From the IMG/VR virus record IMGVR_UViG_3300021962_000036, positions 55,947 to 119,946 of that record: 64,000 nt of DNA; one strand, written 5' to 3'. Below the pieces are notes generated by a model. The model did not search any database. It had not been told where the DNA came from and saw only the letters and a list, made by a program, of their open reading frames with translations. The DNA comes from a virus. A program made the translations under genes and the position numbers. Below, one piece after another: positions 1 to 55,060 of the stretch (its first letter is position 1; each line of letters starts with the position of its first letter).

Positions 1-2793
1 TTATCACAAGCATTTGGAAAAGGAGCAGAAGAACAATTTACAAAACAAGGTTTAAAGACATTCTTAATGGGTGCTTTAACAGGTTCTGTAATCAGACTCC
101 CAACAGCTGTTGCATCACGTTCTTTAGATGCTGCAAATAAAGCTGTTATCAGTAATCAATATAAAAATGATCCAACGTCAAATCCTATTGTAAAAGCTGA
201 AAAGCAATTAGATGAGGACTTGGCACAAATGAACTCATTGTTTAAACAAGCTCATGAGGGTAAGTTTGAACAAAAAGTATTTAACTTTAATGCACAAATG
301 AATGCTGCTCAAGAAGTAGCAGAAGGCGCAGCGCAGGGTTCAAGATATGATTTTGAAAATGGTAAAGATAACTCATTGTTATCTGCTGTAGCAAGTGCAA
401 AACGTACACACTCAATTGACATGCTTTACAAAGCTGTAAAGGATATGGGTGTAGAAATGACTGCTGAAGATTTTGAAAAATCATTTGGTTACAAATTAGA
501 AAACACAAAATATGCTACAGCTCAAGACTTTTCTGAATCTGTAGCTAGAGATATTAAAAAGTATTCTGATACTATTGATAATGTAACAAGTCACGTTAAG
601 AATAAATTAGCCAATCCAATGGCTTATTCTGCAGGTAGTAGAGGTAAATTTGTTACAAGTTTAACAAGACAAGCACAAGAAGATGCTATTCAGGTAATTG
701 CATTGAATAGTGTTAAAGGTGAAATGGCTGCAAATCGTGCTAAACAAGTTGCAAGTGAAATACTAGCTATGCCTAACATGGGCATTTCTGCAGATTTTGC
801 ATTAAGAACTTTGACAAATGCAGGATCAGTTGACGCTGAAGTAGGTAATATTGTTGCAGAACTTAAGATTTTAAATACAAACATGCAGGCAGAAGGTCTT
901 GAACCTGACGCAAAGAAAGCATTGGCTGAACAGATTGCAAATAAACAAGAAGAACTTGCATTAGTTAACAAATGGAAAACATTCTGGGACACTAGAAAAA
1001 ATGTAATAGGGAAAGACTCTGAAGGCAATGATATTGCAGAAGATGAATCTGACTTGTTTGTAGGCCAAAAGTATAGAGGAAAACTTGAAACTCAAGATGA
1101 AAATGGTGACTTTATTTTATCAGAAGAGGAACAGGACTTATTTAGTATAGACCATCCTGAAGTTATAAACACATTCAGAAAGTTAATGTCTATTAAAAAT
1201 AAACAAGCTGGTAACAATACTGAAATATCTGAACAAACACTAAGAGATTCTTTTGAAAAGGTTTATGACTACATGAGATTAGACCAAGACACTAAAGACT
1301 ATATGAGGTCTGTAGATGTGTTAATGAATCCTGAAAATTTCCAAAGAGCATTAGCTAGAATGGCTGATGGTAAGTTTAAACATAAGTTAATCAATTATGT
1401 AGATACAGTATCAGCGCGTTATTCAGTCGCTGCTATGTCTGCTGCAGTAGAACTTGGATTAAATCAACAAGAGTACATAAATCTATTAGCTGATATTGGA
1501 ACTGCTGTAACGTCAAGTGAAGCATACAATAACATTCTTACTTTGGCAGTAGATCCAAATGTTGGTATTGAAAACGCAGAGTATGCTCAAAAATTATCAG
1601 AGCAGATAAATGAAACCATTAAAACTGCAGTTAAAGAAGGTATTGCAAAATACAAGTCTGATGGCATATCTGATTTGTCAGTAGAAGAATTAGATGAAAT
1701 TATTGCAGCTGGTACAATAGATGATGCAAGTGTTAGAAAGTTAGTTATTCTTGACAAGTTAGTAAAGAATCAACCTTTACTTCCTAATGAACAAAAGGTT
1801 TATGATTTGTTTAAAGAAGATTTTGACAAAGAAGCAGAAGCACAGAAAGCTGCACAACCTGTTGCGCAAGAACCTATTATTCCTGTAAATCAAGAAGAGT
1901 TGCCTGAAATTGGCCCTGATGGTGAGTTAGTTGATAGAGTTCCTGTAAATGGTGGTGATCAAGTAGAGGAAGAAGCACCTGTTACATTTGTAGATGAAAA
2001 TGGTGAAGTTGCAGAAGAACCTGCACCTATTGAAACAGAAGTAGAAACTTTAACTCCAGTAGAACCAGCTCAAACACAAACAACAACTGAGGAGGGTGTT
2101 GAAGGTGTTGGTGCTCAAGATGCGTCTAGCATGCTTGCTGGACTACTTGGTATTGAACCTGTAGAGAATGAAGAACCATTTGTTGTTGAAGGTACTACAG
2201 AGTCAGGATTTGATGTTGTAGACAAAAGCAATACTCCAGTAACAAATGAGAAGTTTGAAACAGAAGATAAAGCTCAAGAACTTTCTGACAGTTTAAATGC
2301 TACAAGATTGAACTTAGAGTTTGCTAAACAATTTATATCTCCAATGTTAGAAGATCTTTCTGACAATGGTAAAATTGTAGAGATGCATGATCGTGCGATG
2401 AAATCAATGAAAAGATTTAACAGCATGAACAAGACAAACTTTGAAACTCTTGAAGAATATTACAAGACTCCAAAAGGTAAAGAGTTGTTAAATGGTATTA
2501 GAGATTCTGTCATTTCAGGTCAACCTGTTAAGTATGGTAAACCTAAAGCAATTGTTGTTACAACAAATGATGAGAATCAACCAACATTATTTGATACAAC
2601 AACATCACCAGCAACTTCTGCAAGTTTAACTCTTGAAAGTTTACAAGCATTACACAGTAAAATCCAAGGTTCAATTTCTACACCAGAAGTACAACAAATA
2701 TCAGAAAAAAATAGTAAATTTGTAGAGGGAGGAATTGTCACAGAAGAATCAATTTTAGATGAGTTGAGGAAGATAACTGACTGTTTCTCTTAA
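1..2793 (+). CDS. giant virion cargo/ejection protein 1 (5'-truncated by window edge)
   Basis: Frame is open from position 1 (LSQAFGKGAEEQ... into MGALTG). Helical/acidic protein with a Pro/Glu-rich linker, directly upstream of the virion RNAP as in crAss-like cargo triplets. Only Cys lies in the terminal DCFS. Confidence 0.7.
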   Translation, partial: LSQAFGKGAEEQFTKQGLKTFLMGALTGSVIRLPTAVASRSLDAANKAVISNQYKNDPTSNPIVKAEKQLDEDLAQMNSLFKQAHEGKFEQKVFNFNAQMNAAQEVAEGAAQGSRYDFENGKDNSLLSAVASAKRTHSIDMLYKAVKDMGVEMTAEDFEKSFGYKLENTKYATAQDFSESVARDIKKYSDTIDNVTSHVKNKLANPMAYSAGSRGKFVTSLTRQAQEDAIQVIALNSVKGEMAANRAKQVASEILAMPNMGISADFALRTLTNAGSVDAEVGNIVAELKILNTNMQAEGLEPDAKKALAEQIANKQEELALVNKWKTFWDTRKNVIGKDSEGNDIAEDESDLFVGQKYRGKLETQDENGDFILSEEEQDLFSIDHPEVINTFRKLMSIKNKQAGNNTEISEQTLRDSFEKVYDYMRLDQDTKDYMRSVDVLMNPENFQRALARMADGKFKHKLINYVDTVSARYSVAAMSAAVELGLNQQEYINLLADIGTAVTSSEAYNNILTLAVDPNVGIENAEYAQKLSEQINETIKTAVKEGIAKYKSDGISDLSVEELDEIIAAGTIDDASVRKLVILDKLVKNQPLLPNEQKVYDLFKEDFDKEAEAQKAAQPVAQEPIIPVNQEELPEIGPDGELVDRVPVNGGDQVEEEAPVTFVDENGEVAEEPAPIETEVETLTPVEPAQTQTTTEEGVEGVGAQDASSMLAGLLGIEPVENEEPFVVEGTTESGFDVVDKSNTPVTNEKFETEDKAQELSDSLNATRLNLEFAKQFISPMLEDLSDNGKIVEMHDRAMKSMKRFNSMNKTNFETLEEYYKTPKGKELLNGIRDSVISGQPVKYGKPKAIVVTTNDENQPTLFDTTTSPATSASLTLESLQALHSKIQGSISTPEVQQISEKNSKFVEGGIVTEESILDELRKITDCFS

Positions 2794-2821
2794 TCTTCGT
2801 AAAATCAAAGAATATAAAGGT

Positions 2822-5800
2822 ATGGCATGTCAAATACAAACTGACAAGTACACTTCAGTTGTACTTAACTTAATTAAATTAGACCCTTCAGTATATAGTA
2901 ATTTTGATAACGCTTCAAAGTTTATACTTGGCAGTGCATTGACACCTGAGCAAAAGATGATGTCATTGCATAACATGGCATATATCTACAAGGGCCTGGC
3001 TGGTATTGATAATAAATTTTACAATGCTGGAAATGCTGAAGGTATCATTAGTGCTGTTGTATTAATGGATGATCCATCAAAGTATGTGTCAAGTGTTAGT
3101 GAAATATTAGGTGTCAAGAAACCTTCAGCTTTAAAAGTTGAGAGTATTTCTAAAGCAATTGATAAGCTATCTTCTAAGAAGAACATCACACGTCAAGATT
3201 TAATTTCTTCTGAAGGTATACTTACATCTGTAAAAAACTATTTCAGTGTTACAGTATTTCCTACTAACGAAGAAAGAGAGCAATTACTAAATGAATTTTC
3301 TACTGCAATTAAAACTGCAATTACAGAACATGATTCACCTCAAGCTCACAAAGACTTCTTAATCAAGCAAGTAGATGAAGCAATAAATTCTTTAAGAAAA
3401 TCTTCTAGTTTTATTCCATTGTCAGATATTGCTAATCTAGCAGATTTGAACAATGTATTGATTACTTTGACAAATGGTCAAATGGTTGAGGGCGTTAGAC
3501 AAGATGAGCAATTTAAAATTATTACAAGTGATGGTTCATTACAAACAGTAGAAGCATCACAGATTCTTACAGCAAAAGATGCACGTGTTGCAGATAACTC
3601 AAGAAGTAATGCTGGAGAACAAGTATTTCAAGAACACACTTTACTTTCTAGTTTTTCAATTAAAGCTGTTGATTCAGCGGATCAATTTGAATTAGAAAAG
3701 AAATTGGCTAACATGAAAAATCCACAAGCTGGTATTAAAATTCATGCAGTCAAGTTAAGCGATGTAGCAGATAGAAGAGTAGAACGTATACAAGAAGCTG
3801 CAAAACAAAATCCTAAGTATTCATCTCTAGAGAATAGAGAACATGAGACTTTTGAAAATGCTACACAAATAAAAGCATTACAATCATCTTCTTCTAAGAA
3901 GATTATGACTGTGTCTAGACCTAAAGCAAGTGAACAACAGTTTGTTCTTGTTGGTGAGATTATTGGAAGTGGTGAGAAATTTTATATGTATTCTTCTGAC
4001 AACTTTGTTTTTGTTAGTAGTGATAACACAACAGAAAGAGTTGACTTTACAAATCCAGAACATATGGAATTGGTTAAGTCTCTTGCTGTAAAGAACACAA
4101 AAGAAGGAAACAAATCATTGTCTGATACAGATATCATTGCAATGTCTGAGTCTAATAAATTATTCCAAGGTTTTAAAGCAAGTCTTTCTGACAAGGTTGC
4201 AAGTTTATCTGATAACTCACTTGATGTTACTAGTGAATTTTTTAATGCTTATGAAGCTAGTTCAAAAAGAACAGACATAAACAAAAAACAATTATTAAAG
4301 AATGAGATTGAAGTAGATACTACTTTATCTAAACCTTTGACAGTTGTTACAATGGTAGATGGAGTTATTGCTAATACAGAAGTAGTTAGTGTACCATTCA
4401 TTTATACAAAAGTAAAAAATGACCCATACATCTTAAAACCATTCTTGGCAAAAGGGCAACTTATTCAATTAGAAAATGGTGCTACTGTTTCTCAAGAAGT
4501 ATACGCAAGTGATGTGTTAGGTATTAATCCTTCTGAGATACAAGGTAAAATTGTAAAACCAGAGCATGGTAATCAACTAAACATATTGTTACGTTTCAAC
4601 AATGATGGTACAATTGGATATAGAAGTATTGCTCCTGTATTACAAATGTCTCAGCAAGTAGAGTTTGCAAAATTCATTGTATCATTGGCTAATATTCTTC
4701 AGACATCTGCAAACAGAACTGGTGATATTAGAAACTTTGATAGAAACTCATATGGTTTTAAGTTTTACAATAAAGCAAAACAAGGACCTAATGATGACAA
4801 TAGAGCACCATTGCGTGTAAACTTTGCAACATCAAAAGCAGGACAGTTACAAATAGAAATAAGACCAATGGACAAACAAGGTCCTTATGGTTTTATTGCT
4901 GAAACAGAAAACAAGAATCAATTTAACTTTCCAGTTAATGAAGCTATTATAACAAACTTAGCTAAAGCATTACTAGGAAAGGGTAATTTAGTTAATCAAG
5001 TAAAAGAAGCATATCCTGCTTTGAAGACTTTGGATTTAACAAATACAAAAGACTTAGTTACATTCTATGAGCAGGTAAACAAATTAAGTAATTCAGAAAC
5101 TGCACTTCCTGTTTTAAAACAGTTAAGTGATAGTATTGAGAAAGCTCAAAAAGAATTTGCTGAATACTTGGTTAATAATATTATAAACAAACTTGCTGAA
5201 AGAACAACAATGTTCCCAGAGTTTGTAGAACAATTAAAGAAAGACTTTACATTCAATGGTGTGTACAGACCAGAATTGTTAGTGGCTGACACTGATGAAT
5301 CAGGTGTATTATATCCTAGAATAGAATATGCACAACCTGCAGAACGCAAAGAGTATCGTGAAGATCTTGCAAACTTTAAAATATTACAAGCAAACAGTAA
5401 GAAGTTTACAGTAGTACCAAAAGCTGCAACTCCACAAGTTACAAAATCACAAGAAGTATTAACTCCAATTGTAGAAAGTGAAAAGATTCACAAACAAGAA
5501 CCTTTAAATACAATTGAAGATGACACTACAGATATTCCTGATATTGAAGTATTCTCTTTAGTTGGGGATGAGAATGTTATTGTAGAGACAGATGAACAAA
5601 GATTAGCAGCATCTGAGTGGTTGTCACAATCTTTACCACAATTTGAAATTGATAATGGTTCTCTAGCAGACATTATTGATCTTACTAAATTAGACGGTAC
5701 TGTTCTTGGTGCATTTAAAGATAGAGTTATCTATTTAAATAATGCATTAAAAGGACAAGGTGTAATTTATCATGAAGCTTTCCACGGTGTATTCAGATTC

Positions 5801-8800
5801 TTAATGAGTTCTGAAGAAAGACAAAATCTTATCAATGCTGTTTCTGATAATAAAAAGCATGCTGGTAAGTTCACAGAAAGCGCTCTAAAGGAGTTTGCAC
5901 GTCAACGCAACTATGTGTATAACAAAGAAGAAATGACGCGCTTACAGGCAGAAGAAATTCTAGCTGATGGATTCCAAAACTACATGTTAAAGAATACTAA
6001 ACCAAAAGGTATTCTTGGTCAGTTTATGGCAATGCTTAAAAAGTTATTGGCAATGTTTGCTTCTAAAGGAGCTTACATTGATAACGTGTATGGTAAAATC
6101 AAAAACGGTCAATATAGAAATGAGGTAATCTCTTCTGGTATACATGAAGGTCAAATAGCTTATGAATTAATACCAGGACTTAAGCAGGTAGTATCAACCC
6201 CAGCAGGTGTTGGGCAAAGAACAAGTGTCTTGTCTAAAGCAGATCAAGATCAACTTGTAAACATGCTTGCAGGATATGTAATTGAAGATGGTCAAAAAGA
6301 AGCATTCTCTACAAAATTTGATAGAATTGCTCAGTTAGTATTAGACTATGAATATAACATGGATGTTTTGTTAAGAACAAACTCTGAGTTATTTAAGTCT
6401 AACCCTGGCCTTAAGGAAAAAGTAATCAAAACAATGGGACCTTTGTATGCTAACTACAGATTTATGTTGGGAGCTAGAGCAAAAGGTGAAGCATTGTATG
6501 ATTTAAATACAACAGATAATCCATCTTATGACAACAGGTTTAACAAAAACAATTCTGTTAAAGTATATGGTGAAGAAGAAGCACAGGATAATCACTTGGG
6601 TCAAGTGTCATATGAGATGCTTAAAAAACAAGTTAAAGAGCAAGTTGATAAAGTAAACTCTATTCTTGATGGTACTGAAAAGACTTCTGATAAAGATGTT
6701 GTTGAAAAAGAAATAGCTGGTGCAAATGAAAATACAATTGCAAATGATGATGCAGAAGACGAACAAGAAGTTTCAGAATCATCTGATTTTGATGCTTCAT
6801 TCAATGAGATAAATGCATTAGAGTCTTTGCCAAGACAAATTAGAAAGTTCTTAGCAGTAGTAAGATATGACCAAGTTCACCCAACATTAGGAATTAAAGT
6901 TCCAAGAATGATTGCAGGTGAACAATTGTTTGGTTCACTTATTAAAGTATCTGCAGAGATGGACCCAAGAAATATTATTGAGCACATCAAGATTGTTGCA
7001 GAACAACAAATTGAAGATGGGTACTTTAATTCTGGAAATGACCTAATGGCTGTTTATGACAAGTTAAGTCGTTACACCAAAATGGATGAGTCAGGAACAC
7101 CTCAATCTAATAAGCAATTATATAACATGATAGTTGATGTCTTACATAAGACTGAGATTGATTATGTAATGATTGATGTAAAAACATCACAAACTTTCTT
7201 GGAAGGGGATGAGGTTCTTACAGATACAAGAAACTTTACACTTGTTGATAAAGTACATTCACAAGATGTAAATAATAAGAAAAGAAATTTAGTTACATCT
7301 GTTATTGAGATGTACAAAGAAAATAAAAATAATCCTGAGTACTTAGCTGCAGTAAATAAATTGTTGCAATTGTCACGTACAATTAAGACAAGCAGTTTTA
7401 TTTTAAGTGATGTTACATCTCAAAATGCAAAATTAGAAAGTATTACTACTGAACTACAAAAAGCATTTGAAGATGTAGGCATGAAGTTTCCTAAGTCTTT
7501 GATTAGAATGTCTGTTATGGCAATTGATCAAGTTGATAATAAAGCAACTTTAAATATTACAGGAACTCCATTAACACATTATAATAATCACTCTAAATTT
7601 ATTTCTGAGAAGAAGTATTTAGAAAAAGATTTCTTTACAGATGTGATTAATATATTTGAAAAGATAAGTGTAAACAAAATCTCTTCAAATGACTTTGCAG
7701 TATTGCTTGATGAAAAGAATAGCAAAAGTGATACAGTTAATCGTTTTAACTCAATCATTAAAAAAGCTGCAGAATATATTGTTAAGTATGATCCTAATGA
7801 ATTACCAAGTACTGTGCGTAACGCAGAGGGTAAACCAATTTACAGATACGTAAGTTATACTCCTGCAACTATTATTGCTCAGTCTATACGTACAAAAGGT
7901 TTACTTGAAACTTTAAAAGAAGATCCTTTCTATGCAGATTTCTTAGAATCTTTCTATGCTGATAATGCAATGTTAGGTGACTTACTTAAAGGATTAGATA
8001 CACAAAAAGCAAGAGAAATGAAATTGTTTATGGACAACTTCAAAGTATCATTGTTTGGAGGTGTATCTCAAACTATTGGAGAAAAACAAAAAGAAGGTAA
8101 AAGTTTTAAAAACATTGATGAAAAATCATTGTACATCACAAACATACTTACATTCTTACAAAGAACTACTGAGGCTAGTTTCAAACAAGAACTAGATGAA
8201 AATGGAAAAGTAAAAGATGTAGCTACAAAGATACAAACATATGTACGTTCCTTCTCTCAGTTAGAAGCATCTCAAACAAACTTCTTAGTGACAGCATTGT
8301 ATAATCAATTTGCTGATTCTAAAGGTCTTGTTATGAATGCTGACAAACGTCTTAAAATTGTAGATACTCTTGAGGCTGTTGTAAAACAAGAATACAACCG
8401 TATTGCAAAAGAGTGGGCAAGAAGTGGTGAAAATAAAACAAACTTTGATAATGCTGACTCTAACAAAATCATTAATAAATATAATGGTGAGTTAGATAAG
8501 AATGATAAATCAAAAGCTGTTACAGATAGTTCATCATTAAGAGCTTACAAATTTAATAAGATTGCAGATTTCTTTAGTGCAAATCCAGAGTTAGAGTCTA
8601 ATGAAACTAAAACTGGTTTAGCAGATTTTGCAAAAGAAGGAATTGCATTTGAAGATCTTGATCAAGAGGTTAAAGATGCATTGCTAGATACATTGGAGAA
8701 CTACGCAAAAGAACAGTTAAACAAACATGCTACTAAGCTTATTGATTTAGGTATCCTGCAAAAAGCAATACAAAAACAAAGAAACTCTAAAGGCGATGTA

Positions 8801-11800
8801 ATTACAAGAGGAGTAGGTGGGCCAGAAGCAGAAGCAATTACTTACTATACTTCTACACTTATACCTTCTGTATTAAAAGTTGACAGTGCTCCTGCGGTAT
8901 CTATTGATGGACTTTACCAAAAGACTAAAGAGAACTACAATGAGGCTGGATTTAAAATAGATTCTTCAACTGATTTAAGAGGGTTAGTTGCTGATGCTTT
9001 CTTTAATAACTGGATGAACGCATTACAATTTAATGAGATCATTGATGGTGACATTGCAATGAACGTTAAAGATGCAACTGATTACTTTAAACGTAATAAA
9101 AAATTATTAGCTGGAGGTAGCACAATGAAAGAAGGTTACCATAAAGTAGCTTTCTTAAATACTATTGAAGGATACATCAATGAGAGCTATCCACAGTATG
9201 GTCCTTACTATTCTAAGCAAGAAGTTATTGAAGATGAATCTATTAAGTCAGATGCAGTAAGAGAAAAGATTCTTAAAGAATATGGCTCTTCTATGTATGA
9301 AATATTTGATGGTCAAAGTGTATCATCCCTTATGCATCAAATTGACATGCATGAGTCCATGGGTAGATTGAGTCCTGAAATATTACACTCTCTTATTGCT
9401 AAGCATTACCGTGAGCTTTCTGAAACAGAAATACGCGTAATGGAAGCGGGTAAGGTTGTAAACAATCCTAAGAAGACTGTTACAGCTGCAAGAAATAGTT
9501 ATCATAAACAATCTGAGAACTATATTGACAGAAATGACGTAAGTGTTCTTACACCAAAAGCTGGTCAAAAGGTTAATGATGCTTATGAAGCATTGCATGG
9601 TTTATACATGGACATTTATAACTTGCGTGGACAACGCCAAGATTTAGTTCTTGCTGGTGAATTAGGCGCTCTTACAGATATAGATAACGCTATTATAAAG
9701 AATGTAGAAGAAATTCATACATACTTTAAACCATTACCACACCGTGAGATTTTACATAACATTTTAAATGCTATGGAGTATCATCAAGTTGATCAACTTA
9801 TGGATACCACTGCATCTAAAAATGCTACAATGCTTCCTGTAGATTATGCAACAGAATCAGAAAGAATTGCAGGAAAAGATAGTTATATTAATCTTGCAAT
9901 GTCTTCTTTGAGTGTAGATAATAAGTTCAAGTTCTTACAAGTAGAGACTTCTGGTGTTAAAGATAAAGCTAAGTTTTCTGTACAAAGTAAGGCCCTTATT
10001 GCTGCTGACTTAATTAATCTTGCTGAGATTGCTAGAGTTAGTGGATTAGACATTACAGATTCTGAACAAAAAGCAATTGATAACATTGCTAGTGTTCTTG
10101 AAAATTATCAAAGCACATTAAAAGAAATTGGTGTTTCTAACTTAGCTAATTTAAAAACTATCTTGAGAAAAGATGGTGACTTTGAAGTAGGTAAAATATT
10201 TACACTTATACGTACAAGTTTAGAAGAACAGGGTGCTCCAACAGCAACATTAAAGTTATTTGATGTAGATGCTTCTGGTAAGCCAGTTCATAGTGCAAAC
10301 CTTCCAGGTGTGCGCAACATGCTTGAGTATTATTTCTTTTCACAATATTCTAAAAATGTTACAGATGAAAAAGGTTCTGGTTTTAAAAATATACATATCT
10401 CTTCTTTTGGTTATAATGTACTTGAAGATGAAAATGGAAATGTTATCACTACAGAACAATATCGTAAGAATCCTACAGCTTTTGGTATAGTAAGATCAAG
10501 ACCATTAGGTGTTACCATTGAAGAAGTAAATGGTGTTAAGACTTACTTTGTAGAAACAATCATGCCTAAGCCTTTATTTAAAAGTGCTGCACATGAAAGA
10601 TTTTACATGGAAAACTTAACCAAAATGTTTGGTGTACGTATTCCTACAGAAGATAAGCGTTCAATGATAGCAATCAAAGTAGTTGACTTTATTGATAGTT
10701 CTAACTTGAATGGTGTAATTGTACCACACTTTGTACATTTGCTTGCTGGTTCTGACTTTGACGTAGATGCTTTATATGGTCAAACATTTGCACACTACTT
10801 TGATTTATCAGGTAATCCTAAGTTATATGGTGAGTATCAAGATGGAAAGAATACAAACTTAAACAAGTATGCTGAGTTTGTTCAGTACATGAGTAAGGAT
10901 GCTGATCTAAAAGCGTTAATTAAAAAAGAAACAAAAGGACTACTTGAAAATAGTTCTTATGAAATAACAGAAGAAGCTTTAAGTATTCTATACCATTCTG
11001 GATTTGATGAGTCAGATTATAATGGTGCAATGAATTTTGCAGAACTTAAAGAATCTTATGATAATCTTGTTATTGACATTGAGGAATTGATGGAAATAAG
11101 AGATGAAGCTAAAGAAGAGTTTGTTGATGCTATTAGAAGAAATGAAGTTAATCCTTCAGATAGACGCGCACTACAAGATAGACTTGATTTAGGCAAAGAG
11201 GTAGGTGAGTATAATGAAGAACTTGGACAGAAACGTGATCAAAGAAATCAATATGGTAGAGAAGTAAGTAGAGCTAAGCGTTTTACATTTGCAGGACTGA
11301 AAGTTGCTGCTACATTACAAGCGTTTACTAAGATGGGATTACCAACAAGTGCACAAGCATTTGAAGCAAATCCTAACTATGCATTATCTGTACGTCCTAT
11401 ATTCCAAAATAAAAACTTACAAGCTAAATTAGACATTGTTTCTAATGAGGCTGTACACAAATTCTTGTACATTCACGAAAGATCTTCTACTCAACGTTTT
11501 GAAGATATCTTAGAATCATTTGGTATTGACATTAAAGATTTCTCTACCAAATATAATATGTACACAACTGATGGTGTAGTTTCCACAAAAGTAGGAAACG
11601 CCATGAACAAGGATGGTATTGGTATTACAGCAAACATTAACAAGTTCTTGGCTCTTGCATCTCAATATGGTTTGGAATTAAAACCTGAAAATGTTATTTG
11701 GGCATTTAAAAATGCAGATTTAGACCAAGTAAACTTGAATAAATTTGGTACATTAAATGCTGAAGATCAACGTGTTATAGCATTAATTGGTAACATTCTT

Positions 11801-14143
11801 GGTATGTTTGCGGATGGTGCTAAGAAACCTATTCCTGCAGCATTGCAAATGAATGAGGTAAATGCTGGTGTTACACTTGCTATGATTGGTGTAGGTATGT
11901 CACCTGAGTTTGCTATTGGATTTAACTTTATACCTGAGATTAAAAAAGCAGTACAAAGTGTTCAGTCTACAAAATATGCTATCAGTGAGTCTATGGCTAC
12001 TGCATATAAATTCTTAAACAATGAGGTAGCTGAACAAATAAAATTGTTAGCTGCTGATAACAAAGATGCATTGAACAACTTAATCAGTTCAGGTTTAATA
12101 TCTCCAAGATCAAATCCTTATAACATTATTATCAATAAAGACAAACTCTTAATTGATTTTAAAGCAAGAGCATTAGATCCAAAAGCAGTATTAAGTAATA
12201 CATTATCTTCTACAGATATTGGTTACAAAGTATCTGCAATTGTAGAATCTAAGTCTGAAGAAAATGCTGCAGAAAAAATATTGAACAGAGTTGAACTATC
12301 TGAGGTTGAACAAAAAATGATTTTGTTACAGCTTTATAAAGAACAGGCTCAACAAACATTTGACATTAAACGCGCAGGTTCTCTTATTGACTTATTCAAA
12401 AAACTTAATCCATCTTTTGTAAACTTTGATAAGTTACTAACTAACGTTAGAAATTTACAAGCAGGTGAAAGTATCTTTACAAGAGAAACAAGTGATAAAA
12501 TATTTGAAGGCAATCAAGTATGGCCACAATTGTTAGAAGCTATTGAAGACTTAAATGAGCAATCATCTAAAATATTCTTAGAAAGAACAGAGTTCTTTGC
12601 TCCAATTAAAAAAGCATTTGAAAGTGTATTTACTGATCAAGCTAATATTGCTAAGATTATCACAAGCTTTGTAGCATTAAGAAAATACCAAATGTCTATG
12701 CCAGGTAGCAGGATTACAGGTACAGCAATGGATGCTTTGATACAAGAAGATGATCAAAACTTAATACAATCATTTACTCCTGAGTTCTGGTTTACAAATG
12801 ATTTAGCAGGAGAATTAGAGGATATGCAAAAAAGATATCCTCAGAATAAGTTCTTGCAATTACTAAGACCTGATATATCTGATAACAAAGTATTCTTGAA
12901 GTCTGGTGGTTATCTAAATGAAAGAAGTATTAAGATGATCAACAAATCTAAGATTTCAGGTAAGTTGGCAGACGAGGTATCAGATGACGCAGATTTCTTA
13001 TTGAGAAATGAGAATATGTTTATGAAGAAGTTATTCTATCATGAGCTTGCTAAAACTGGTATGCAATACAAATCAGGTTCTTTCTTACAGTATATGAATC
13101 CTGAAATGCAATTAGATTTATCTGGTTACATTGAAACATTCATTTCTAAACTTGAAGAAACAAAGGGTGACCGTTACAAGTTAATTAGTGCTATTCAAGA
13201 ATTTTTAGGTAAAGAAGTTACTGAGAAAGAAGTTTATGATTTGTTTGATGAACTGTTTGTTCAAATGGCTCAAGCTGCAAGTAAAGAAGTTGGTAATACC
13301 AAAATTAAAATTGCAGATCCACTATCATTGAACAACATGTCAAACATAATGACATCACTTCAGTTTGAAGAAGGGACCAAAGATAGAGAACGCAGAGCTG
13401 TTGCTAGAGAAGTAATAGCTAGAGTTACAGGTCAACTTACAGAAGGTGATGCTATGCGTGTAAGATTGGTTGACACAATAGATAAAAAACCAGTAGAAAT
13501 ATTGGATATTAACATGGATGTACCTAAAGATGTTGCACAAGCATCTAAGAAAACTGTAGATGAGATTGGCAAGAAGTTGGGTATTAGATTTAATCCTATT
13601 GATGAGGTATATCAATTTCCATTAATGATTTCTATTGGTAGAAGTAAATACTTACTGCAAGGTGTTGATGATGAGATTGGTAATAATAGTTTTGGTAAAA
13701 CAGTTATCAATTCTATTGTAGGGAAGGGAGAATACATCAGTAAAGGTATGTCTGCTAGATATGCATTGATTCCATCACAACTTACAGCTGGAACATTAAG
13801 TCCTATTGGGTTTACAAAAGAGAACACTAAGAAATATATGGATTATGTTTCTGGCAAGGAAAAAATGGAGTATATTGCACCAGAGATTAAAAAGTCTGAA
13901 GAATCAGTAGCAAAACTACCAGAATCTACAGAAAAACAAACTCAAGAATCTGTAACTAAATCTCAGTTGCAAATTGATATGGACAACTTAAACTTAACTG
14001 ATGAGGTTGTTAATTCTTTATATTCAGAAAGTAGTAAGAGAATGGCTCCAGATGTATTTAAAGCTGCAGCGCAAGGTATGATTGCTAACCTAAGAGCAAC
14101 AATGTCAAATGAACAAATTATAGATAAAATTAAGTGCTTATAA
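2822..14143 (+). CDS. virion-associated single-subunit (crAss-type, double-psi beta-barrel) RNA polymerase with N-terminal zincin metallopeptidase-like domain, 3773 aa
   Basis: GVRIPT...NGVIVP...AGSDFDVDALY catalytic DxDxD motif (DFDVD at 10754-10768), a DGQS motif and DGAK further along. HEAFH...EEILAD zincin motif starts at 5771. Size and context match phi14:2 gp66-like polymerases. Confidence 0.9.
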   Translation: MACQIQTDKYTSVVLNLIKLDPSVYSNFDNASKFILGSALTPEQKMMSLHNMAYIYKGLAGIDNKFYNAGNAEGIISAVVLMDDPSKYVSSVSEILGVKKPSALKVESISKAIDKLSSKKNITRQDLISSEGILTSVKNYFSVTVFPTNEEREQLLNEFSTAIKTAITEHDSPQAHKDFLIKQVDEAINSLRKSSSFIPLSDIANLADLNNVLITLTNGQMVEGVRQDEQFKIITSDGSLQTVEASQILTAKDARVADNSRSNAGEQVFQEHTLLSSFSIKAVDSADQFELEKKLANMKNPQAGIKIHAVKLSDVADRRVERIQEAAKQNPKYSSLENREHETFENATQIKALQSSSSKKIMTVSRPKASEQQFVLVGEIIGSGEKFYMYSSDNFVFVSSDNTTERVDFTNPEHMELVKSLAVKNTKEGNKSLSDTDIIAMSESNKLFQGFKASLSDKVASLSDNSLDVTSEFFNAYEASSKRTDINKKQLLKNEIEVDTTLSKPLTVVTMVDGVIANTEVVSVPFIYTKVKNDPYILKPFLAKGQLIQLENGATVSQEVYASDVLGINPSEIQGKIVKPEHGNQLNILLRFNNDGTIGYRSIAPVLQMSQQVEFAKFIVSLANILQTSANRTGDIRNFDRNSYGFKFYNKAKQGPNDDNRAPLRVNFATSKAGQLQIEIRPMDKQGPYGFIAETENKNQFNFPVNEAIITNLAKALLGKGNLVNQVKEAYPALKTLDLTNTKDLVTFYEQVNKLSNSETALPVLKQLSDSIEKAQKEFAEYLVNNIINKLAERTTMFPEFVEQLKKDFTFNGVYRPELLVADTDESGVLYPRIEYAQPAERKEYREDLANFKILQANSKKFTVVPKAATPQVTKSQEVLTPIVESEKIHKQEPLNTIEDDTTDIPDIEVFSLVGDENVIVETDEQRLAASEWLSQSLPQFEIDNGSLADIIDLTKLDGTVLGAFKDRVIYLNNALKGQGVIYHEAFHGVFRFLMSSEERQNLINAVSDNKKHAGKFTESALKEFARQRNYVYNKEEMTRLQAEEILADGFQNYMLKNTKPKGILGQFMAMLKKLLAMFASKGAYIDNVYGKIKNGQYRNEVISSGIHEGQIAYELIPGLKQVVSTPAGVGQRTSVLSKADQDQLVNMLAGYVIEDGQKEAFSTKFDRIAQLVLDYEYNMDVLLRTNSELFKSNPGLKEKVIKTMGPLYANYRFMLGARAKGEALYDLNTTDNPSYDNRFNKNNSVKVYGEEEAQDNHLGQVSYEMLKKQVKEQVDKVNSILDGTEKTSDKDVVEKEIAGANENTIANDDAEDEQEVSESSDFDASFNEINALESLPRQIRKFLAVVRYDQVHPTLGIKVPRMIAGEQLFGSLIKVSAEMDPRNIIEHIKIVAEQQIEDGYFNSGNDLMAVYDKLSRYTKMDESGTPQSNKQLYNMIVDVLHKTEIDYVMIDVKTSQTFLEGDEVLTDTRNFTLVDKVHSQDVNNKKRNLVTSVIEMYKENKNNPEYLAAVNKLLQLSRTIKTSSFILSDVTSQNAKLESITTELQKAFEDVGMKFPKSLIRMSVMAIDQVDNKATLNITGTPLTHYNNHSKFISEKKYLEKDFFTDVINIFEKISVNKISSNDFAVLLDEKNSKSDTVNRFNSIIKKAAEYIVKYDPNELPSTVRNAEGKPIYRYVSYTPATIIAQSIRTKGLLETLKEDPFYADFLESFYADNAMLGDLLKGLDTQKAREMKLFMDNFKVSLFGGVSQTIGEKQKEGKSFKNIDEKSLYITNILTFLQRTTEASFKQELDENGKVKDVATKIQTYVRSFSQLEASQTNFLVTALYNQFADSKGLVMNADKRLKIVDTLEAVVKQEYNRIAKEWARSGENKTNFDNADSNKIINKYNGELDKNDKSKAVTDSSSLRAYKFNKIADFFSANPELESNETKTGLADFAKEGIAFEDLDQEVKDALLDTLENYAKEQLNKHATKLIDLGILQKAIQKQRNSKGDVITRGVGGPEAEAITYYTSTLIPSVLKVDSAPAVSIDGLYQKTKENYNEAGFKIDSSTDLRGLVADAFFNNWMNALQFNEIIDGDIAMNVKDATDYFKRNKKLLAGGSTMKEGYHKVAFLNTIEGYINESYPQYGPYYSKQEVIEDESIKSDAVREKILKEYGSSMYEIFDGQSVSSLMHQIDMHESMGRLSPEILHSLIAKHYRELSETEIRVMEAGKVVNNPKKTVTAARNSYHKQSENYIDRNDVSVLTPKAGQKVNDAYEALHGLYMDIYNLRGQRQDLVLAGELGALTDIDNAIIKNVEEIHTYFKPLPHREILHNILNAMEYHQVDQLMDTTASKNATMLPVDYATESERIAGKDSYINLAMSSLSVDNKFKFLQVETSGVKDKAKFSVQSKALIAADLINLAEIARVSGLDITDSEQKAIDNIASVLENYQSTLKEIGVSNLANLKTILRKDGDFEVGKIFTLIRTSLEEQGAPTATLKLFDVDASGKPVHSANLPGVRNMLEYYFFSQYSKNVTDEKGSGFKNIHISSFGYNVLEDENGNVITTEQYRKNPTAFGIVRSRPLGVTIEEVNGVKTYFVETIMPKPLFKSAAHERFYMENLTKMFGVRIPTEDKRSMIAIKVVDFIDSSNLNGVIVPHFVHLLAGSDFDVDALYGQTFAHYFDLSGNPKLYGEYQDGKNTNLNKYAEFVQYMSKDADLKALIKKETKGLLENSSYEITEEALSILYHSGFDESDYNGAMNFAELKESYDNLVIDIEELMEIRDEAKEEFVDAIRRNEVNPSDRRALQDRLDLGKEVGEYNEELGQKRDQRNQYGREVSRAKRFTFAGLKVAATLQAFTKMGLPTSAQAFEANPNYALSVRPIFQNKNLQAKLDIVSNEAVHKFLYIHERSSTQRFEDILESFGIDIKDFSTKYNMYTTDGVVSTKVGNAMNKDGIGITANINKFLALASQYGLELKPENVIWAFKNADLDQVNLNKFGTLNAEDQRVIALIGNILGMFADGAKKPIPAALQMNEVNAGVTLAMIGVGMSPEFAIGFNFIPEIKKAVQSVQSTKYAISESMATAYKFLNNEVAEQIKLLAADNKDALNNLISSGLISPRSNPYNIIINKDKLLIDFKARALDPKAVLSNTLSSTDIGYKVSAIVESKSEENAAEKILNRVELSEVEQKMILLQLYKEQAQQTFDIKRAGSLIDLFKKLNPSFVNFDKLLTNVRNLQAGESIFTRETSDKIFEGNQVWPQLLEAIEDLNEQSSKIFLERTEFFAPIKKAFESVFTDQANIAKIITSFVALRKYQMSMPGSRITGTAMDALIQEDDQNLIQSFTPEFWFTNDLAGELEDMQKRYPQNKFLQLLRPDISDNKVFLKSGGYLNERSIKMINKSKISGKLADEVSDDADFLLRNENMFMKKLFYHELAKTGMQYKSGSFLQYMNPEMQLDLSGYIETFISKLEETKGDRYKLISAIQEFLGKEVTEKEVYDLFDELFVQMAQAASKEVGNTKIKIADPLSLNNMSNIMTSLQFEEGTKDRERRAVAREVIARVTGQLTEGDAMRVRLVDTIDKKPVEILDINMDVPKDVAQASKKTVDEIGKKLGIRFNPIDEVYQFPLMISIGRSKYLLQGVDDEIGNNSFGKTVINSIVGKGEYISKGMSARYALIPSQLTAGTLSPIGFTKENTKKYMDYVSGKEKMEYIAPEIKKSEESVAKLPESTEKQTQESVTKSQLQIDMDNLNLTDEVVNSLYSESSKRMAPDVFKAAAQGMIANLRATMSNEQIIDKIKCL

Positions 14144-14144
14144 T

Positions 14145-17100
14145 ATGAACACATGTCCAAATCCAAATAGTCCTGAGTGGAAAGAACTAGTAGCAAAACT
14201 AGGTGAAGGTCAGGCTATGACTGCTTATACTTTAAATGGAAACAACACTCCTTCTGTTGAAGAAGCTGAAGCATTATTAAGCAAACTTAAGGTTGAAGAA
14301 AAAGATGAACAAGTATCAAGATCTTCAGATGAGTTTAAACTACAACGTGCTGTACAACAAAGAACTTCTTTAGAAAAACTTAAGTTCCAGGCTAATCCTA
14401 AACAGAAAGCTACAATTGATCAGCTTATCACAATGAATGATAACTATCAAGAGTTCTTAAGAAAGAACATAGAACTTGCAAAGAATGGACAACCTATTAT
14501 AAAAACAGTAAGTGTTTCTAACTTTATTGGTTCTTCTGACTTTAATGTAGATCCTAAAGAGTATGAGGCGTTCAAATTATTTGGAACATTCATGCATGAG
14601 GTGTTAGAGTTGGGGCAACTTAAGTCTTTGGATACAGGAAAATCTATTTTTGAAATTGTTGATGAAGACTTCTTTAAAGAAGCTTATGATAACTACACAA
14701 AAAAGAATCCTTTCTTTATTGAAAACTTGGATGAGTCAACCATGTTTGATATGGCAAAGCGTTTAGCAATGCATGTATCTATACACAACGACAGAGGATA
14801 CATGATTCTTCCAGAGATTACAGTAACAGGTACTACCAGAACAGGGACTACAGTTATTGGACGTTTGGATTTAATGTTGGTAGATACTCAAGGACGCGTA
14901 AGTGTATTTGACTTTAAGACTAAGAAAGTAAAACGTCTTGTAGAGTATGATCCAATTGGTCAACCAGTAATGAATGAAGATTTAGCATTTGTTGATCTTG
15001 CAGAAAAATCATTTCCTGTTTCAAATAAAGAAGGAACATCTCCTGCGTTTAGAGGTCAGGGTAGAACAGCATATGATACTTGGACATTGCAATTAAAGGT
15101 GTATGAAAATATCTTGCAGCAAAGTGGTCTTGAGGTTAACGCTCAATCTATTGTTGCTCTTATGTATCAAACAGATGATAACAAGAAGTTTGTTGGAGCT
15201 ACTGTCCATGTATTTGATGAAGATAACTATTACAACTATGCAGGTTCAGCAGATATTCCAAATAATAATGGTCACTGGGTTGCAGATCCTACAAGAGGCG
15301 CAGACTTAATTAAAAGTCTAAGAGATGTTGTAGATAAAGAAATACCAACATCTGATGTAGAGGAAGAAGAAAAAGCAAAAAAGGAAGCAAAACTATTGGA
15401 GTTTGAACCTACTTCTAAAAATGATGAAACATTAAGAAATAGGTTAAAGCAAATTGTAGATGCAGAGTTAGATGAAATTGGCAAACAAATTAAAGAACTT
15501 GATTCTAACCAAAGTAATCCTGCACTTAGAGAAATATTAGCAACTAGACGTAAAACATTAAATGATTTTAATGCTATTATGTCAAGACCTCAATCTGAAG
15601 AAGATGTAAAGTATTCAGTAAACTTAGCATTAGCTATTGAATCTGTAGGTGTTGATTTGGAAACTTTATCAAGATTGTCAGATGAGGCAATTGTAAATTT
15701 TAAAATAAACAAAGATTCTTATACTTCAAAAGAAGGTGCACAAATTCTTGAAGCTTACAAAAAGTCTAAATCATTAGACATTATTGTAGACATTATCAAA
15801 GAAATTGTAGATGATGCTAGAAGTAATCCTGATAATAACATTACAGTTGACAGTGAAATAATGAAACGTCTTTCTGAGATGGAGTCTTCATTAGCTAGAG
15901 TACAATCAAACTTTGCAAAGGTTGCAATGCACAACAGCATTCAGGTATTAAAAACTCCTGGAAGCAAAGTATTTGCAGAAGTAAATGCTGACATAAAAGA
16001 GGCATTACAAGCTAAGTTAATCAGTTTAAAAAAACAACTTGAAAATTTAAAAGCTGGAAAAGCTAATAGTATATTTCAGTCTATTAAATCTTCTGCTCTT
16101 TCTTTTATGAGTAAAGAGTACAAACAAAAACTTGCAGAGAAACTAGAAAAGGATGGCAACAATGATACTCCAGGTTTAATGTTAGAGATTGAAAAGCTTG
16201 AAAAACAAATACTTACAGTTGAAGCTGTCATTGATGGTGGATTAGATTTTGATGACGCTGCTTTAGAAAGATATATTTCTGGTGTAACAACGTCAACGTC
16301 AAATCTTTATTTAGGTTCTAACACAGCATTCAATAGTAATAGTTGGTTACAAAACTTAATGTTAGATAAAGCAATTGCATCTGCTTCAAATAGTAGTGTT
16401 GAAATTGCAGCGTTTACAATGATGTTAAAAAATGCTGAAGGATTGGCTAGAATGGAAATTCAAAACAACCTTGCTGTGTTAAAGTTTGATCAGAAGAGAG
16501 ACTCTCTTTTAAAGAGAATGTCAGTTGAACAACTTAATGAAAGAGTATCTGAGTGGAGAAAAACTACAAGTATAGATAAAGAAGGCAATCCTGTAGAGAA
16601 GAACATTCTTTATATGACCAAACCTTTTGGTGAAGAGTATGAAAATACATACAGATCATTTAGTGCTACAATCAGACAGTTAAATAAAGAAATTTATGAA
16701 GCTAAGATTAAGTACAATGAAAACATTAAAACTGCAGAAGCACAACAATATAAAGATGCTTACCTAGCAAAGCAATCAGAAAGAGAAGCAGAAAATACCA
16801 AGTATATTAAATGGATGATGGACAATGCTCATTTACCTTTTAATGAGAAGTTTTATGAACTGCAACTTGGAATGCCTCATGATATTAAAGATAAGTTACA
16901 AGAGAAGTATCTTGAAATTGAAACAATAACCTTCCAGGTAGGTAAAGGTAATGAAGTGCTACTTGAGGATCATGACTTTGAACGTTTGCAAGAGTTGGAG
17001 ATTGAGATTAAAAAACTTAGAGTAGAAGCAAAAAAACTTAACCCAAAGTATGCAGATATGATAGATGAGTTTAACTCACTATTTGAATTTGATACTAACC

Positions 17101-30897: not shown

Positions 30898-31827
30898 ATG
30901 CCAATAGGAAGTGGATCAGTTGCTGCAACAGGTATAAATATGGAGTTAGGTAGATCATCTAACTCTAACTTATCTATTGATGCTGCAGAAAATGGAGGAT
31001 ATGGTGCTATAAACACTTGTAGTCCATCATATCCAAGTGGGTCAAATCCTGCATCTTTTAGTGAATGGAGAAATTATAATCATGGATTTGCGTGTTGTAA
31101 TGCTCCTTCTATATCTGCTGGTAACGTAGGTTCTGGTAGTGTAGGTGTTTCAATAAGTTATTCTAACTGTTCTTCTATGCATTTTGAGTACAGCTCAAAC
31201 TATGGAAGTAGCTGGAGTACAAACTCTGGAGGATGTACTTCTTTTTGGACACAAAGTGGTTTGGCATCTAGTACAACGTATTTAATCAGAGTAAGAATAA
31301 TATGCGCAAGCACAGGTGGTTATTCAGGATATTCTAACACAATATCAATGACCACTTCTGGAAGTTATCCTGCATATGGTACATACTTGTCACAATATTG
31401 TTCAGGGTGTACATTATACTATAGATATGCAAATGGATCTGGAGGTACGTATGATGTAAGTCAAGGATGTACTACTGCATGTGGTGGATGCTGCTGTGCT
31501 CCTGCATATGGAACATATCAGTATGCTGGTTGTTCTGGTTGTGATTATAACTATTATTATGCAGATGGATGTTATGGAGTATATGCTTCTTTAATAGAAT
31601 CAAATTCAACAAGTTGTGGATGTGGTGGCGGAGGAGGAGCGTGTTTTTTTGCGTATTCTGATGGAAGTGGACGTATGAGAGGGGCATACTGCGATGGTTC
31701 TATTTATTCTGGTTTCTCTTTTAGTTATGGAGAACCTACAGGAGCGTGTATAAATTTTGATCAAGGTACTGTTGGACTATATCACGAAGGTCAATCTTGT
31801 AGTCCTGGTGAACTAATGCCATTTTAA
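30898..31827 (+). CDS. Cys/Gly/Ser/Tyr-rich fibre-associated protein with FN3-like segment (candidate receptor-binding tip)
   Basis: About 22 Cys. GLASSTTYLIRVR...GYSGYSN is FN3-like. Two PAYGTY-x3-CSGC-x5-A[ND]G repeats. Confidence 0.55.
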   Translation: MPIGSGSVAATGINMELGRSSNSNLSIDAAENGGYGAINTCSPSYPSGSNPASFSEWRNYNHGFACCNAPSISAGNVGSGSVGVSISYSNCSSMHFEYSSNYGSSWSTNSGGCTSFWTQSGLASSTTYLIRVRIICASTGGYSGYSNTISMTTSGSYPAYGTYLSQYCSGCTLYYRYANGSGGTYDVSQGCTTACGGCCCAPAYGTYQYAGCSGCDYNYYYADGCYGVYASLIESNSTSCGCGGGGGACFFAYSDGSGRMRGAYCDGSIYSGFSFSYGEPTGACINFDQGTVGLYHEGQSCSPGELMPF

Positions 31828-54659: not shown

Positions 54660-54950
54660 TTACTGTTCTAAGTTGTCGTAGTCAATGTATTCATCATCAT
54701 AAAGCTTTTCTTCAGGAAGTACATCTGTTAAATCTTCTACGTATTCTTCCTCTTCTATAATTGAGTCTTCATCAATAATTTCTTCTTTTTCAGATGCGTT
54801 TCCATATTTTAAAACGCTTAAAGCAAAAGGATCATTAACTTCTTCACCATAGTTAAAGGCAACATACATGTTTAATTCATCATCTGTCATCCTCAAATAT
54901 TGCTCAATTGAGATTTCTATACATTTACCATTTGGCAATTGATATAGCAT
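54660..54950 (-). CDS. acidic hypothetical protein
   Basis: 96 aa with a D/E-rich C-terminal half. Confidence 0.7.
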   Translation of the reverse strand: MLYQLPNGKCIEISIEQYLRMTDDELNMYVAFNYGEEVNDPFALSVLKYGNASEKEEIIDEDSIIEEEEYVEDLTDVLPEEKLYDDEYIDYDNLEQ

Positions 54951-55060
54951 TTGAGTGTCAGTGTTTATTATCTGCCACTAAAATACAATTTTTCTCAGAA
55001 CATTGAATATGTAAAGATAAATATTTAAAATTAAAATAGTACTATATTGCTATGATTTTT

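Follow-up and report, generated by a model that had tools for sequence, protein, structure and literature searches.

Three consecutive genes on the + strand of a distant crAss-like phage, here called P1, P2 and P3, each code for a giant protein. Together these proteins contain only four cysteines (Cys), which lie at the termini where one protein faces the next: the P1 C-terminus and the P2 N-terminus, then the P2 C-terminus and the P3 N-terminus. The genes lie at the left edge of the window, i.e., the whole stretch of 64,000 nucleotides (nt) that was analysed, which is positions 55,947–119,946 of the 119,946-bp IMG/VR record IMGVR_UViG_3300021962_000036 (estimated completeness 99%). Across related phages, the facing Cys are kept, gained and lost together with the gene architecture, and the outer ends are kept Cys-free. 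The pattern generalises from this contig to crAss-like phages at large, cultured ones included. On balance, it is somewhat more likely than not that the facing Cys form head-to-tail disulfides that would turn the three proteins into a redox-cleavable chain, standing in for a polyprotein. The genes and the four Cys codons are as follows.

1..2793, + strand: P1, open reading frame (ORF) for the C-terminal 930 of 1478 residues of a giant cargo protein; single Cys, residue 1476
Genome position 54303, 1643 nt upstream of the window, + strand: start of the P1 gene; full protein 1478 amino acids (aa)
2782..2784, + strand: TGT codon of Cys1476, the only Cys of P1, third residue from the C-terminus (...ITDCFS, then stop)
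2822..14143, + strand: P2, 3773 aa, giant protein of the virion RNA polymerase (RNAP) type; Cys only at residues 3 and 3772
2828..2830, + strand: TGT codon of the P2 N-terminal Cys3 (MACQI...), an invariant alignment column
14135..14137, + strand: TGC codon of the P2 C-terminal Cys3772, second residue from the end (...KIKCL, then stop), an invariant alignment column
14145..20042, + strand: P3, 1965 aa, cargo protein; single Cys, residue 4; start 1 nt past the P2 stop
14154..14156, + strand: TGT codon of the P3 N-terminal Cys4 (MNTCPN...), an invariant alignment column

A programmatic count gave four Cys in the 7,216 residues of P1, P2 and P3 (0.055%), against 414 Cys in the 31,003 residues (1.34%) of the other 121 non-nested ORFs of the same genome. 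Counted from the nearest terminus, the sites are P1 −3, P2 +3, P2 −2 and P3 +4, and the probability that four randomly placed Cys would each fall into a different one of the four 5-residue windows at the facing termini is ~5.5e-12. The first-pass annotation, made from the letters of the window, had placed the four Cys codons at 2782, 2828, 14135 and 14154 and had claimed that internal Cys are absent, that the last protein has no C-terminal Cys, which makes the pattern 1C-2N, 2C-3N, and that other genes of the genome use Cys normally. All of this was borne out: the codons lie exactly there, no further Cys occurs in P2, in P3, in the 930 in-window residues of P1 or in its upstream part, the full sequences show neither a C-terminal Cys in P3 nor an N-terminal Cys in P1, and the 121 other ORFs have the Cys content given above. 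Its cargo total of ~6,650 aa has to be corrected to ~7,200 aa, because P1 extends beyond the window. The C-terminal motif that it had seen as an amphipathic helix shared by P1 and P2 is real as sequence (P1 EESILDELRKITDCFS; P2 NEQIIDKIKCL), and a helix ending at the Cys was predicted on the P2 side, as described below.

The co-occurrence of a C-terminal Cys with an N-terminal Cys in the next gene, which followed from the first-pass annotation, was examined in related phages. A scan of IMG/VR with the P2 alignment yielded 57 distinct loci at 92–23% identity, each taken with up to 10 kb of flank, and their ORFs were labelled by BLAST against the window proteins. A junction was counted as paired if Cys occurred in the last 10 residues of the upstream protein and in the first 14 residues of the downstream protein, each read from the longest ORF. 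Cys stood on both sides in 108/108 visible junctions (42 P1|P2, 40 P2|P3, 13 P2a|P2b and 13 P2b|P3, where P2a and P2b are the two parts of a split P2), which comprise 68 distinct terminal-sequence pairs, and this co-occurrence tracks the splits and fusions of the genes. The N-terminal Cys lies at residue 3–6 from the nearest Met and the C-terminal Cys at −1 to −5, while the free ends carry none in these loci (0/37 complete P1 N-termini and 0/53 P3 C-termini). Internal Cys are very rare: 2 in 57,879 residues of P1, 28 in 175,844 of P2 including P2b, and 25 in 107,913 of P3. Both TGT and TGC are used at every site (e.g., 22/20 at the P1 C-terminus), and the intergenic gaps between the chain genes vary from −16 to +32 nt. 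The constraint therefore falls on the amino acid and not on a nucleotide signal, indicating that selection acts at the protein level. The spacing is tightest at the P3 side. The P2 stop and the P3 start (14141–14147) are 1 nt apart here, the gap is 1 or 3 nt in 22/40 direct P2|P3 junctions, and P2b and P3 are separated by 0–1 nt in 13/13 cases, which suggests translational coupling and an equal synthesis of neighbouring chain members.

Searches for homologues of each protein against 5.8 billion proteins gave the same result, so that the conservation of the terminal Cys anticipated by the first-pass annotation is well supported. For P3, 105 homologues at 100–24% identity were found, and 102 of them have Cys in the first eight residues, mostly as M-x-x-C-P-N; two of the exceptions (P0009 and P0041) are N-terminally short gene calls, and the third, P0105, is the most distant homologue (24%). 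Among the 70 homologues of P2 (94–30% identity), Cys occurs at residue 3 or 4 in 68, the remaining two (P0116 and P0145) being N-terminally short calls, and in the last four residues in 70/70, including P0167 (2652 aa), a truncated call whose Cys is truly internal. In the best 120 of 171 homologues of P1, Cys stands at −2 or −3 in 119, the sole exception being labelled as partial, and it is the only Cys of the protein in 116.

Several lines of evidence place this phage. Its terminase large subunit (TerL), portal and major head protein match the crAss-type families PHROG 6681, PHROG 6547 and PHROG 11589, respectively. By tblastn, TerL matched 133 records, all of crAss-like, Flavobacterium or Cellulophaga phages, at 24–26% identity (best E 1e-42), and the 701 aa of P2 around the DFDVD motif matched annotated RNAP subunits in 70 crAss-phage records including crAss001 gp50 (best E 7e-14). 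The P1 profile has a weak similarity to phi14:2 gp67 (hhalign probability 67.6%, E 5e-5). Because of these head and packaging families, the TerL and RNAP matches and the weak P1–gp67 match, the phage is assigned as a distant crAss-like one, in agreement with the first-pass annotation. The term crAss-like is used here as a label and not for membership of the order Crassvirales; FpV4, which is about as distant by TerL, is classified outside Crassvirales. With megablast, the first 20 kb had no match among phage records, P1 and P2 matched no PHROG or Pfam family, and a sequence search of P2 and P3 against the PDB returned nothing at E <= 0.05 (best E 0.57 for P2 and 0.082 for P3). The P1-P2-P3 genes appear to be this phage's version of the RNAP-associated cargo block. 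Like the RNAP cargo of Crassvirales (crAss001, phi14:2), they occupy the corresponding block behind the genes for tail and cargo, include a giant with the DFDxD motif and show the same terminal-Cys pattern. Unlike it, they belong to a 120-kb genome whose TerL is ~25% identical, P1 and P2 have no PHROG or Pfam family, and P2 unites the zincin-like and RNAP motifs in one 3773-aa protein. The features concerned are listed below.

5771..5785, + strand: HEAFH, P2 residues 984-988, zincin-like HExxH motif, assigned from the motif only
10754..10768, + strand: DFDVD, P2 residues 2645-2649, the catalytic DxDxD motif of crAss-like virion RNAPs, assigned from alignment and tblastn
13919..14143, + strand: C-terminal module of P2 (...LNLTDEVVNSLY...IIDKIKCL, then stop), found as the separate small protein P2b in 13 related loci
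14559..14930, + strand: PD-(D/E)XK nuclease-superfamily domain, P3 residues 139-262 (Pfam PF12705, E 1.6e-5, 25.4 bits, cut-off 22)

In an alignment of 34 P2 homologues, H984, E985, F987 and H988 of HEAFH and D2645, D2647 and D2649 of DFDVD are invariant; the protein itself has no Pfam or PHROG match. Directly before P1 lies a gene for an 874-aa protein (genome 51661–54285, MATFIKG...), which has no Cys here and none in 38/38 labelled counterparts. It looks like Cys-free cargo outside the chain and may, by its position and lack of Cys, be the counterpart of crAss001 gp46 (534 aa, no Cys).

Gene fission and fusion give the most telling view of how the facing Cys behave. In 13 loci, P2 stops early with a terminal Cys (e.g., ...DENNC before the stop) and is followed by an extra protein, P2b, of 149–744 aa. 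In the alignment, the last ~70 residues of P2b match the module that closes the unsplit P2 of the window (...LNLT.EVV..LY...KIKCL at the C-terminus). P2b carries one Cys near its N-terminus (M-K-C, M-P-C or M-A-L-K-C) and one at −2, with no others, and in the window, where P2 is unsplit, a Cys is lacking at the point matching the split. The AlphaFold model of a split-off C-terminal module (P2b, 193 aa; pLDDT 74, pTM 0.52) has a helix at residues 183–192 that ends at the Cys; a Foldseek search of the PDB with this model returned no match at E <= 0.001. A complex prediction of P3 residues 1–280 with P2 residues 3640–3773, with alignments as input, reached ipSAE values of 0.09 and 0.11, the mark being 0.32, which speaks neither for nor against binding. 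At fusions, the pair is absent. The giants of loci L075 (4639 aa) and L074 (4019 aa) have a P1-like N-terminal part (hhalign 99.5%, E 4e-23 and 97%, E 5e-11, respectively), sit after a gene of the 874-aa type and contain one Cys each, near the C-terminus, followed by a P3 with an N-terminal Cys. A further candidate, that the extra ~300–400 N-terminal residues of P3 in five loci (L042, L053, L055, L062 and L066) are a fused P2b, was rejected, as the alignment showed no convincing similarity.

For a census beyond these loci, a profile of the P1 core (24 sequences, 386 positions) was searched against 1.84 billion representatives. It retrieved 2,405 proteins at E <= 0.001, and the counts that follow cover the best 150 of these 2,405 hits. 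The 106 stand-alone P1 forms (1100–3000 aa) all lack an N-terminal Cys. A Cys falls within the final 10 residues in 99 of them and within the final five in 95, and 93 contain no other Cys. The 35 fused forms (>= 3800 aa), 25 of them with a literal DFDxD, likewise lack an N-terminal Cys (0/35); a C-terminal Cys is present in 32/35, and 12/35 have no internal Cys. The nine short fragments have neither terminal Cys.

The comparison was extended to eleven records of named phages. In phi14:2, gp67 (1797 aa) has one Cys, which is its last residue, the crystallised RNAP gp66 (2180 aa) has Cys3 and Cys2179, and gp65 (1421 aa) has one Cys at residue 3. crAss001 shows a lone Cys at −3 in gp47 (2341 aa), Cys5, Cys1334 and one further Cys at −9 in gp50, and a lone Cys at residue 5 in gp49. 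The masses reported for these three crAss001 proteins are 262.5, 276.9 and 154.5 kDa, ~694 kDa in sum (PMC10172136). The phi14:2 proteins gp65–67 are reported as virion proteins (10.1101/2020.03.07.982082), as are crAss001 gp47, gp49 and gp50 (PMC10172136), by mass spectrometry according to the record notes in both cases. p-crAssphage LMMB, cr3_1, cr107_1 and cr8_1 encode a P1-like protein (Cys at −1 or −2) and then a fused RNAP giant with Cys at residue 3–5 and no C-terminal Cys. FpV4 gp32 (4287 aa) has a single Cys at −2 and is followed by gp33 with Cys3. Only the giant (Cys3) is visible in ctcc615, because the start of the record cuts its neighbour. These two-protein lineages, of the FpV4 and the p-crAssphage type, are left with a single conserved pair, which always faces across the junction; this argues against the alternative pairing in which the P2 N- and C-termini join within the protein and P1 pairs with P3.

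In three records, the gene calls have to be considered. crAss002 follows the pattern if its giant gp33 begins at Met33, as M-S-C (NC_055828.1, L078 12278–12400), which is the annotated start of the relative cr107_1 gp41 (MSCTPSN). In cr110_1, the first Cys of gp40 (L084, 11050) stands at annotated residue 17, the annotated start being taken as given. The annotated starts of both giant RNAP genes seem too far upstream. In cr116_1 (L083, NC_055882.1, 15700–16700), the annotated RNAP gene gp051 breaks off within the catalytic motif, directly past ...GSDFD; next come a 215-aa ORF with LAGLIDADG-like sequence (gp050) and gp049. An intron carrying a homing endonuclease appears to interrupt the DFDxD motif here, which would make gp051 and gp049 a single gene, and cr116_1 fits the terminal-Cys pattern once the intron-borne endonuclease is accounted for.

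Two other features of these records concern thiols. Three proteins carry a lone terminal Cys, in each case their only one, without a facing partner: an 861-aa protein of p-crAssphage LMMB (L077 1177–3762, Cys at −2), crAss002 gp30 (L078 1583–3256, Cys at −8) and FpV4 gp30 (L087 15854–17650, Cys5). They may form homotypic links or have another partner, and the chain model leaves them unexplained. A thioredoxin-family gene is present in cr8_1 (gp04, L085 25339–25608) and ctcc615 (L086 14396–14665), in both on the opposite strand and ~1.3–1.6 kb past the point where the giant RNAP gene ends.

In the mechanism proposed here, P1, P2 and P3 correspond to gp67, gp66 and gp65 of phi14:2 and to gp47, gp50 and gp49 of crAss001, which travel inside the capsid and enter the host by ejection. 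Nearly all Cys have been stripped from them by selection, which has kept exactly one at each terminus facing the next protein. Each facing pair, P1 C-terminus with P2 N-terminus and P2 C-terminus with P3 N-terminus, would form an inter-protein disulfide once the particle leaves the reducing cytoplasm, and the three separately translated proteins (two or four in other lineages) would then be joined head to tail in the virion as one nearly linear covalent chain. With each Cys at most 5–6 residues from an end, the overhangs would be tiny side stubs, so that the joined chain could pass the narrow ejection channel like a single unfolded polypeptide; this fits the report that crassvirus cargo must partly unfold at constrictions of < 50 Å (PMC10172136). 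In the reducing cytoplasm of the host, cleavage of the links would set the enzymes free. Functionally, such a chain would be equivalent to the fused polyprotein encoded by other lineages. A disulfide is favoured because, for a pair of partner thiols in a particle that meets the outside world, no chemistry is simpler, and crAss001 virions are reported to contain structural disulfides (PMC10172136). From the pattern, we infer the S–S bond, its timing, the threading in gene order and the reductive release. The first-pass annotation had suggested such a disulfide-linked chain, and its reading is partly supported, the comparative checks having come out in its favour. There is about an even chance that the whole of Crassvirales and its relatives, including the most abundant human-gut phages, deliver the virion RNAP and its two partners as one redox-cleavable covalent concatemer, in which fusion and Cys pair are interchangeable. 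Such a concatemer would be pulled through the tail like a single thread, its N-to-C-terminal disulfides having formed outside the cell.

Other roles of the facing Cys have to be weighed against a disulfide. They may interact through a bridging metal ion or a non-covalent terminal clasp, for co-packaging or as an RNAP holo-complex, since the co-variation of the facing termini demonstrates partnership and not its chemistry. The conserved terminal motifs, i.e., the amphipathic helix at the C-terminus and the alternating CKIKIKQ or CQIQTDKY after the N-terminal Cys, could dock, and the HExxH motif of P2 implies that metal handling is present in the system. However, each junction offers two thiols only, with no conserved His or extra Cys nearby in the terminal sequences, and two-coordinate Cys-metal-Cys sites are rare. 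The number of Cys shifts by two with the architecture (2, 4 or 6 per chain), which excludes a single shared four-Cys site. A metal bridge or clasp is thus unlikely. It is rather unlikely, too, that the terminal Cys bond elsewhere, with a second copy of the same protein, with a capsid, portal or tail-lumen protein, or with a periplasmic thiol-disulfide enzyme of the host at entry. Homotypic partners would be available, as crAss001 is estimated to hold ~6 copies of each RNAP-associated protein (PMC10172136), and lone terminal Cys do occur in neighbouring proteins (the p-crAssphage 861-aa protein, crAss002 gp30 and FpV4 gp30). Bonding of this kind, however, predicts neither the strict two-sidedness (108/108), nor the simultaneous gain of both Cys at a split and their joint absence at a fusion. 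The 874-aa protein encoded just upstream contains not a single Cys in 38/38 loci.

An unpaired role, such as a site of chemical modification, a processing or capsid-targeting signal, or a redox switch that holds the RNAP inactive until it reaches the reducing cytoplasm, is improbable. A position near the end of a protein is typical of targeting or processing signals, which counts in its favour. The phi14:2 preprint also raises the need for activation of the virion RNAP, with a possible part for the zincin-like protease (10.1101/2020.03.07.982082). Yet a targeting or modification signal should mark every cargo protein, the free ends included, whereas Cys is found at 0/37 P1 N-termini (0/141 in the census hits covered, the best 150 of 2,405) and 0/53 P3 C-termini, and the C2-like 874-aa protein is entirely free of Cys. 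Chance, compositional bias or an annotation artefact can be excluded. The genome is AT-rich (GC content 33.7%) and structural proteins are Cys-poor (the tail-fibre-like proteins downstream have 0–4 Cys each), which lowers the number of Cys expected, but the random-placement probability of ~5.5e-12 stands against chance, as do the conservation of the pattern down to 24–30% identity and the use of both Cys codons.

The disulfide chain has to face a number of points that weigh against it. Its support is the sequence pattern and the co-variation, from which we infer the S–S bond itself. No thioredoxin or glutaredoxin was found in this genome in searches whose controls worked and that did not include DsbA; the Erv1/Alr search carries no weight, as its control gave no signal. 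With assembly in the reducing cytoplasm and no such enzyme found, the oxidation would have to be spontaneous or occur after lysis. The 108 junctions overstate the number of independent observations because many loci are closely related (near-duplicates are, e.g., L026/L039, L025/L041/L058, L056/L065 and L068/L071), and the counts of fission and fusion are counts of loci, not of events mapped on a tree. The P1-P2 fusion candidate in locus L063 is not significant (hhalign 15%, E 0.0017), and L070 looks like the L063 gene with a frame break and is the same unconfirmed fusion candidate. In the part of the census covered, 7/106 stand-alone and 3/35 fused forms have no Cys in the last 10 residues; some of them have one 12–58 residues from the end instead, and others may be truncated calls. 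The C-terminal Cys of crAss001 gp50 lies nine residues from the end, the fused RNAP giants of gut crAss phages have 5–16 internal Cys, so that the purge is not absolute, and the P3 homologue P0105 (24% identity) has no Cys whatsoever.

Comparison with known systems shows what is shared and what is not. N4-like phages (Schitoviridae: N4 gp50–52, DEV gp71–73) also pack a giant RNAP in the virion and eject it with helper proteins. The N4 polymerase is a T7-like single-subunit enzyme and not of the DFDxD two-barrel type. Membership of the N4-like ejection apparatus was considered for the window cargo and rejected: P2 has a two-barrel-type DFDxD motif and matches the RNAP subunits of crAss phages, not those of N4, and the terminal Cys are retained. 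Cys amounts to 0.00075% of residues in gp71 homologues of N4-like phages vs 0.865% proteome-wide, which has been ascribed to passage through the periplasm (PMC11445570). Unlike the window cargo with its terminal Cys, those ejection proteins are described as wholly Cys-free, with no terminal pairs. P2 would thus work like the N4-like virion RNAP, as a Cys-depleted ejected RNAP, without belonging to its family.

Some phages are reported to fuse the three proteins into one polyprotein (10.1101/2020.03.07.982082). Among the phages compared here, single-polypeptide forms join P1 to P2 (L074, L075, FpV4 gp32 and the 35 fused forms among the best 150 of 2,405 census hits) or P2 to P3 (p-crAssphage and crAss002). 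The published idea is the cleavage of a polyprotein into parts, whereas the split forms here appear to rebuild covalent continuity by a Cys pair, which points to continuity itself being selected. Disulfides do form in the virions of tailed phages, as reported for the tail hub, the ring proteins and the gp57 dimer of crAss001 (PMC10172136), and the tail-tube rings of siphoviruses are reported to provide further covalent cross-links in phage particles (PMC13576161). Those structural bonds stiffen a static shell, whereas the bonds proposed for the window proteins would join mobile cargo that leaves the particle. In AB toxins (e.g., diphtheria toxin), a single disulfide holds the chains together until its reduction, which follows translocation across the membrane. 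They offer a functional analogy, in which a redox-cleavable link carries an unfolded part through a narrow channel and reduction in the cytosol frees the enzyme. They differ in that there is no homology and no virion, and their two chains come from one cut precursor and are not separately translated.

The cargo module as such is known, but the terminal Cys pairs are a conserved property of it that is new. The first-pass annotation knew of no description of such a system; this holds for the terminal pairs and not for the purge of Cys for the periplasm, which has been published for N4-like phages (PMC11445570). No description of terminal Cys or of a disulfide chain in crAss-like cargo was found in full-text searches of the literature, with supplements, subscription papers and Extended Data Tables 2–3 of PMC10172136 lying outside their scope. 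In its available sections, the crAss001 atlas names tail and portal-vertex proteins as the only ones with disulfides and is silent on cargo cysteines (PMC10172136), and the available text of the phi14:2 preprint mentions neither cysteine nor disulfide (10.1101/2020.03.07.982082). The conserved Cys pair at the junctions offers a concrete hypothesis for the order of a cargo of several megadaltons, and its co-delivery in fixed proportion, through the narrow crassvirus tail. If it is true, the published rule would be refined, in that ejected phage proteins avoid cysteine except where it joins proteins. The frequent fusion and splitting of the three genes at no evident cost would find an explanation as well, with gene fusion (a peptide bond) and fission (a Cys pair) as interchangeable solutions for covalent continuity. 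The Cys pattern is also a simple sequence signature that could serve to find the cargo chain in unannotated crAss-like contigs and to correct their start codons (N-terminal M-x-C). The hypothesis is addressable in existing cultured phages (phi14:2, crAss001 and crAss002), and reduced and non-reduced mass spectrometry samples of crAss001 virions are reported to have been run already (PMC10172136).

Some further properties of the chain proteins were noted. Many of the P2 homologues P0120–P0169 are 100–750 residues longer than the window P2, and precomputed Pfam assignments show inserted domains in the long forms, with PF00075 in eight and PF08719, PF18760 and PF25176 in 2–3 each. About half of P0120–P0169 have a recurrent internal Cys near residue 2620–2670, in a YFVE-C-I context near the catalytic motif. 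P1 has a hydrophobic stretch at residues 205–223 (genome ~54915–54971; Kyte-Doolittle 19-residue mean 1.65), which is Gly-rich with invariant G204, G208 and G229 and may give the chain's first protein a segment for insertion into a membrane. A second hydrophobic stretch was found in P3 at residues 1805–1823 (window ~19557–19613; mean 1.76).

Elsewhere in the genome, several Cys-rich proteins, with no PHROG match where tested, contrast sharply with the chain. A 309-aa protein encoded right after the tail-fibre genes (window 30898–31827, + strand) has 22 Cys (7.1%), and three consecutive proteins of 520, 533 and 260 aa encoded at genome 31149–35149 (+ strand) have 25, 37 and 14 Cys, respectively.

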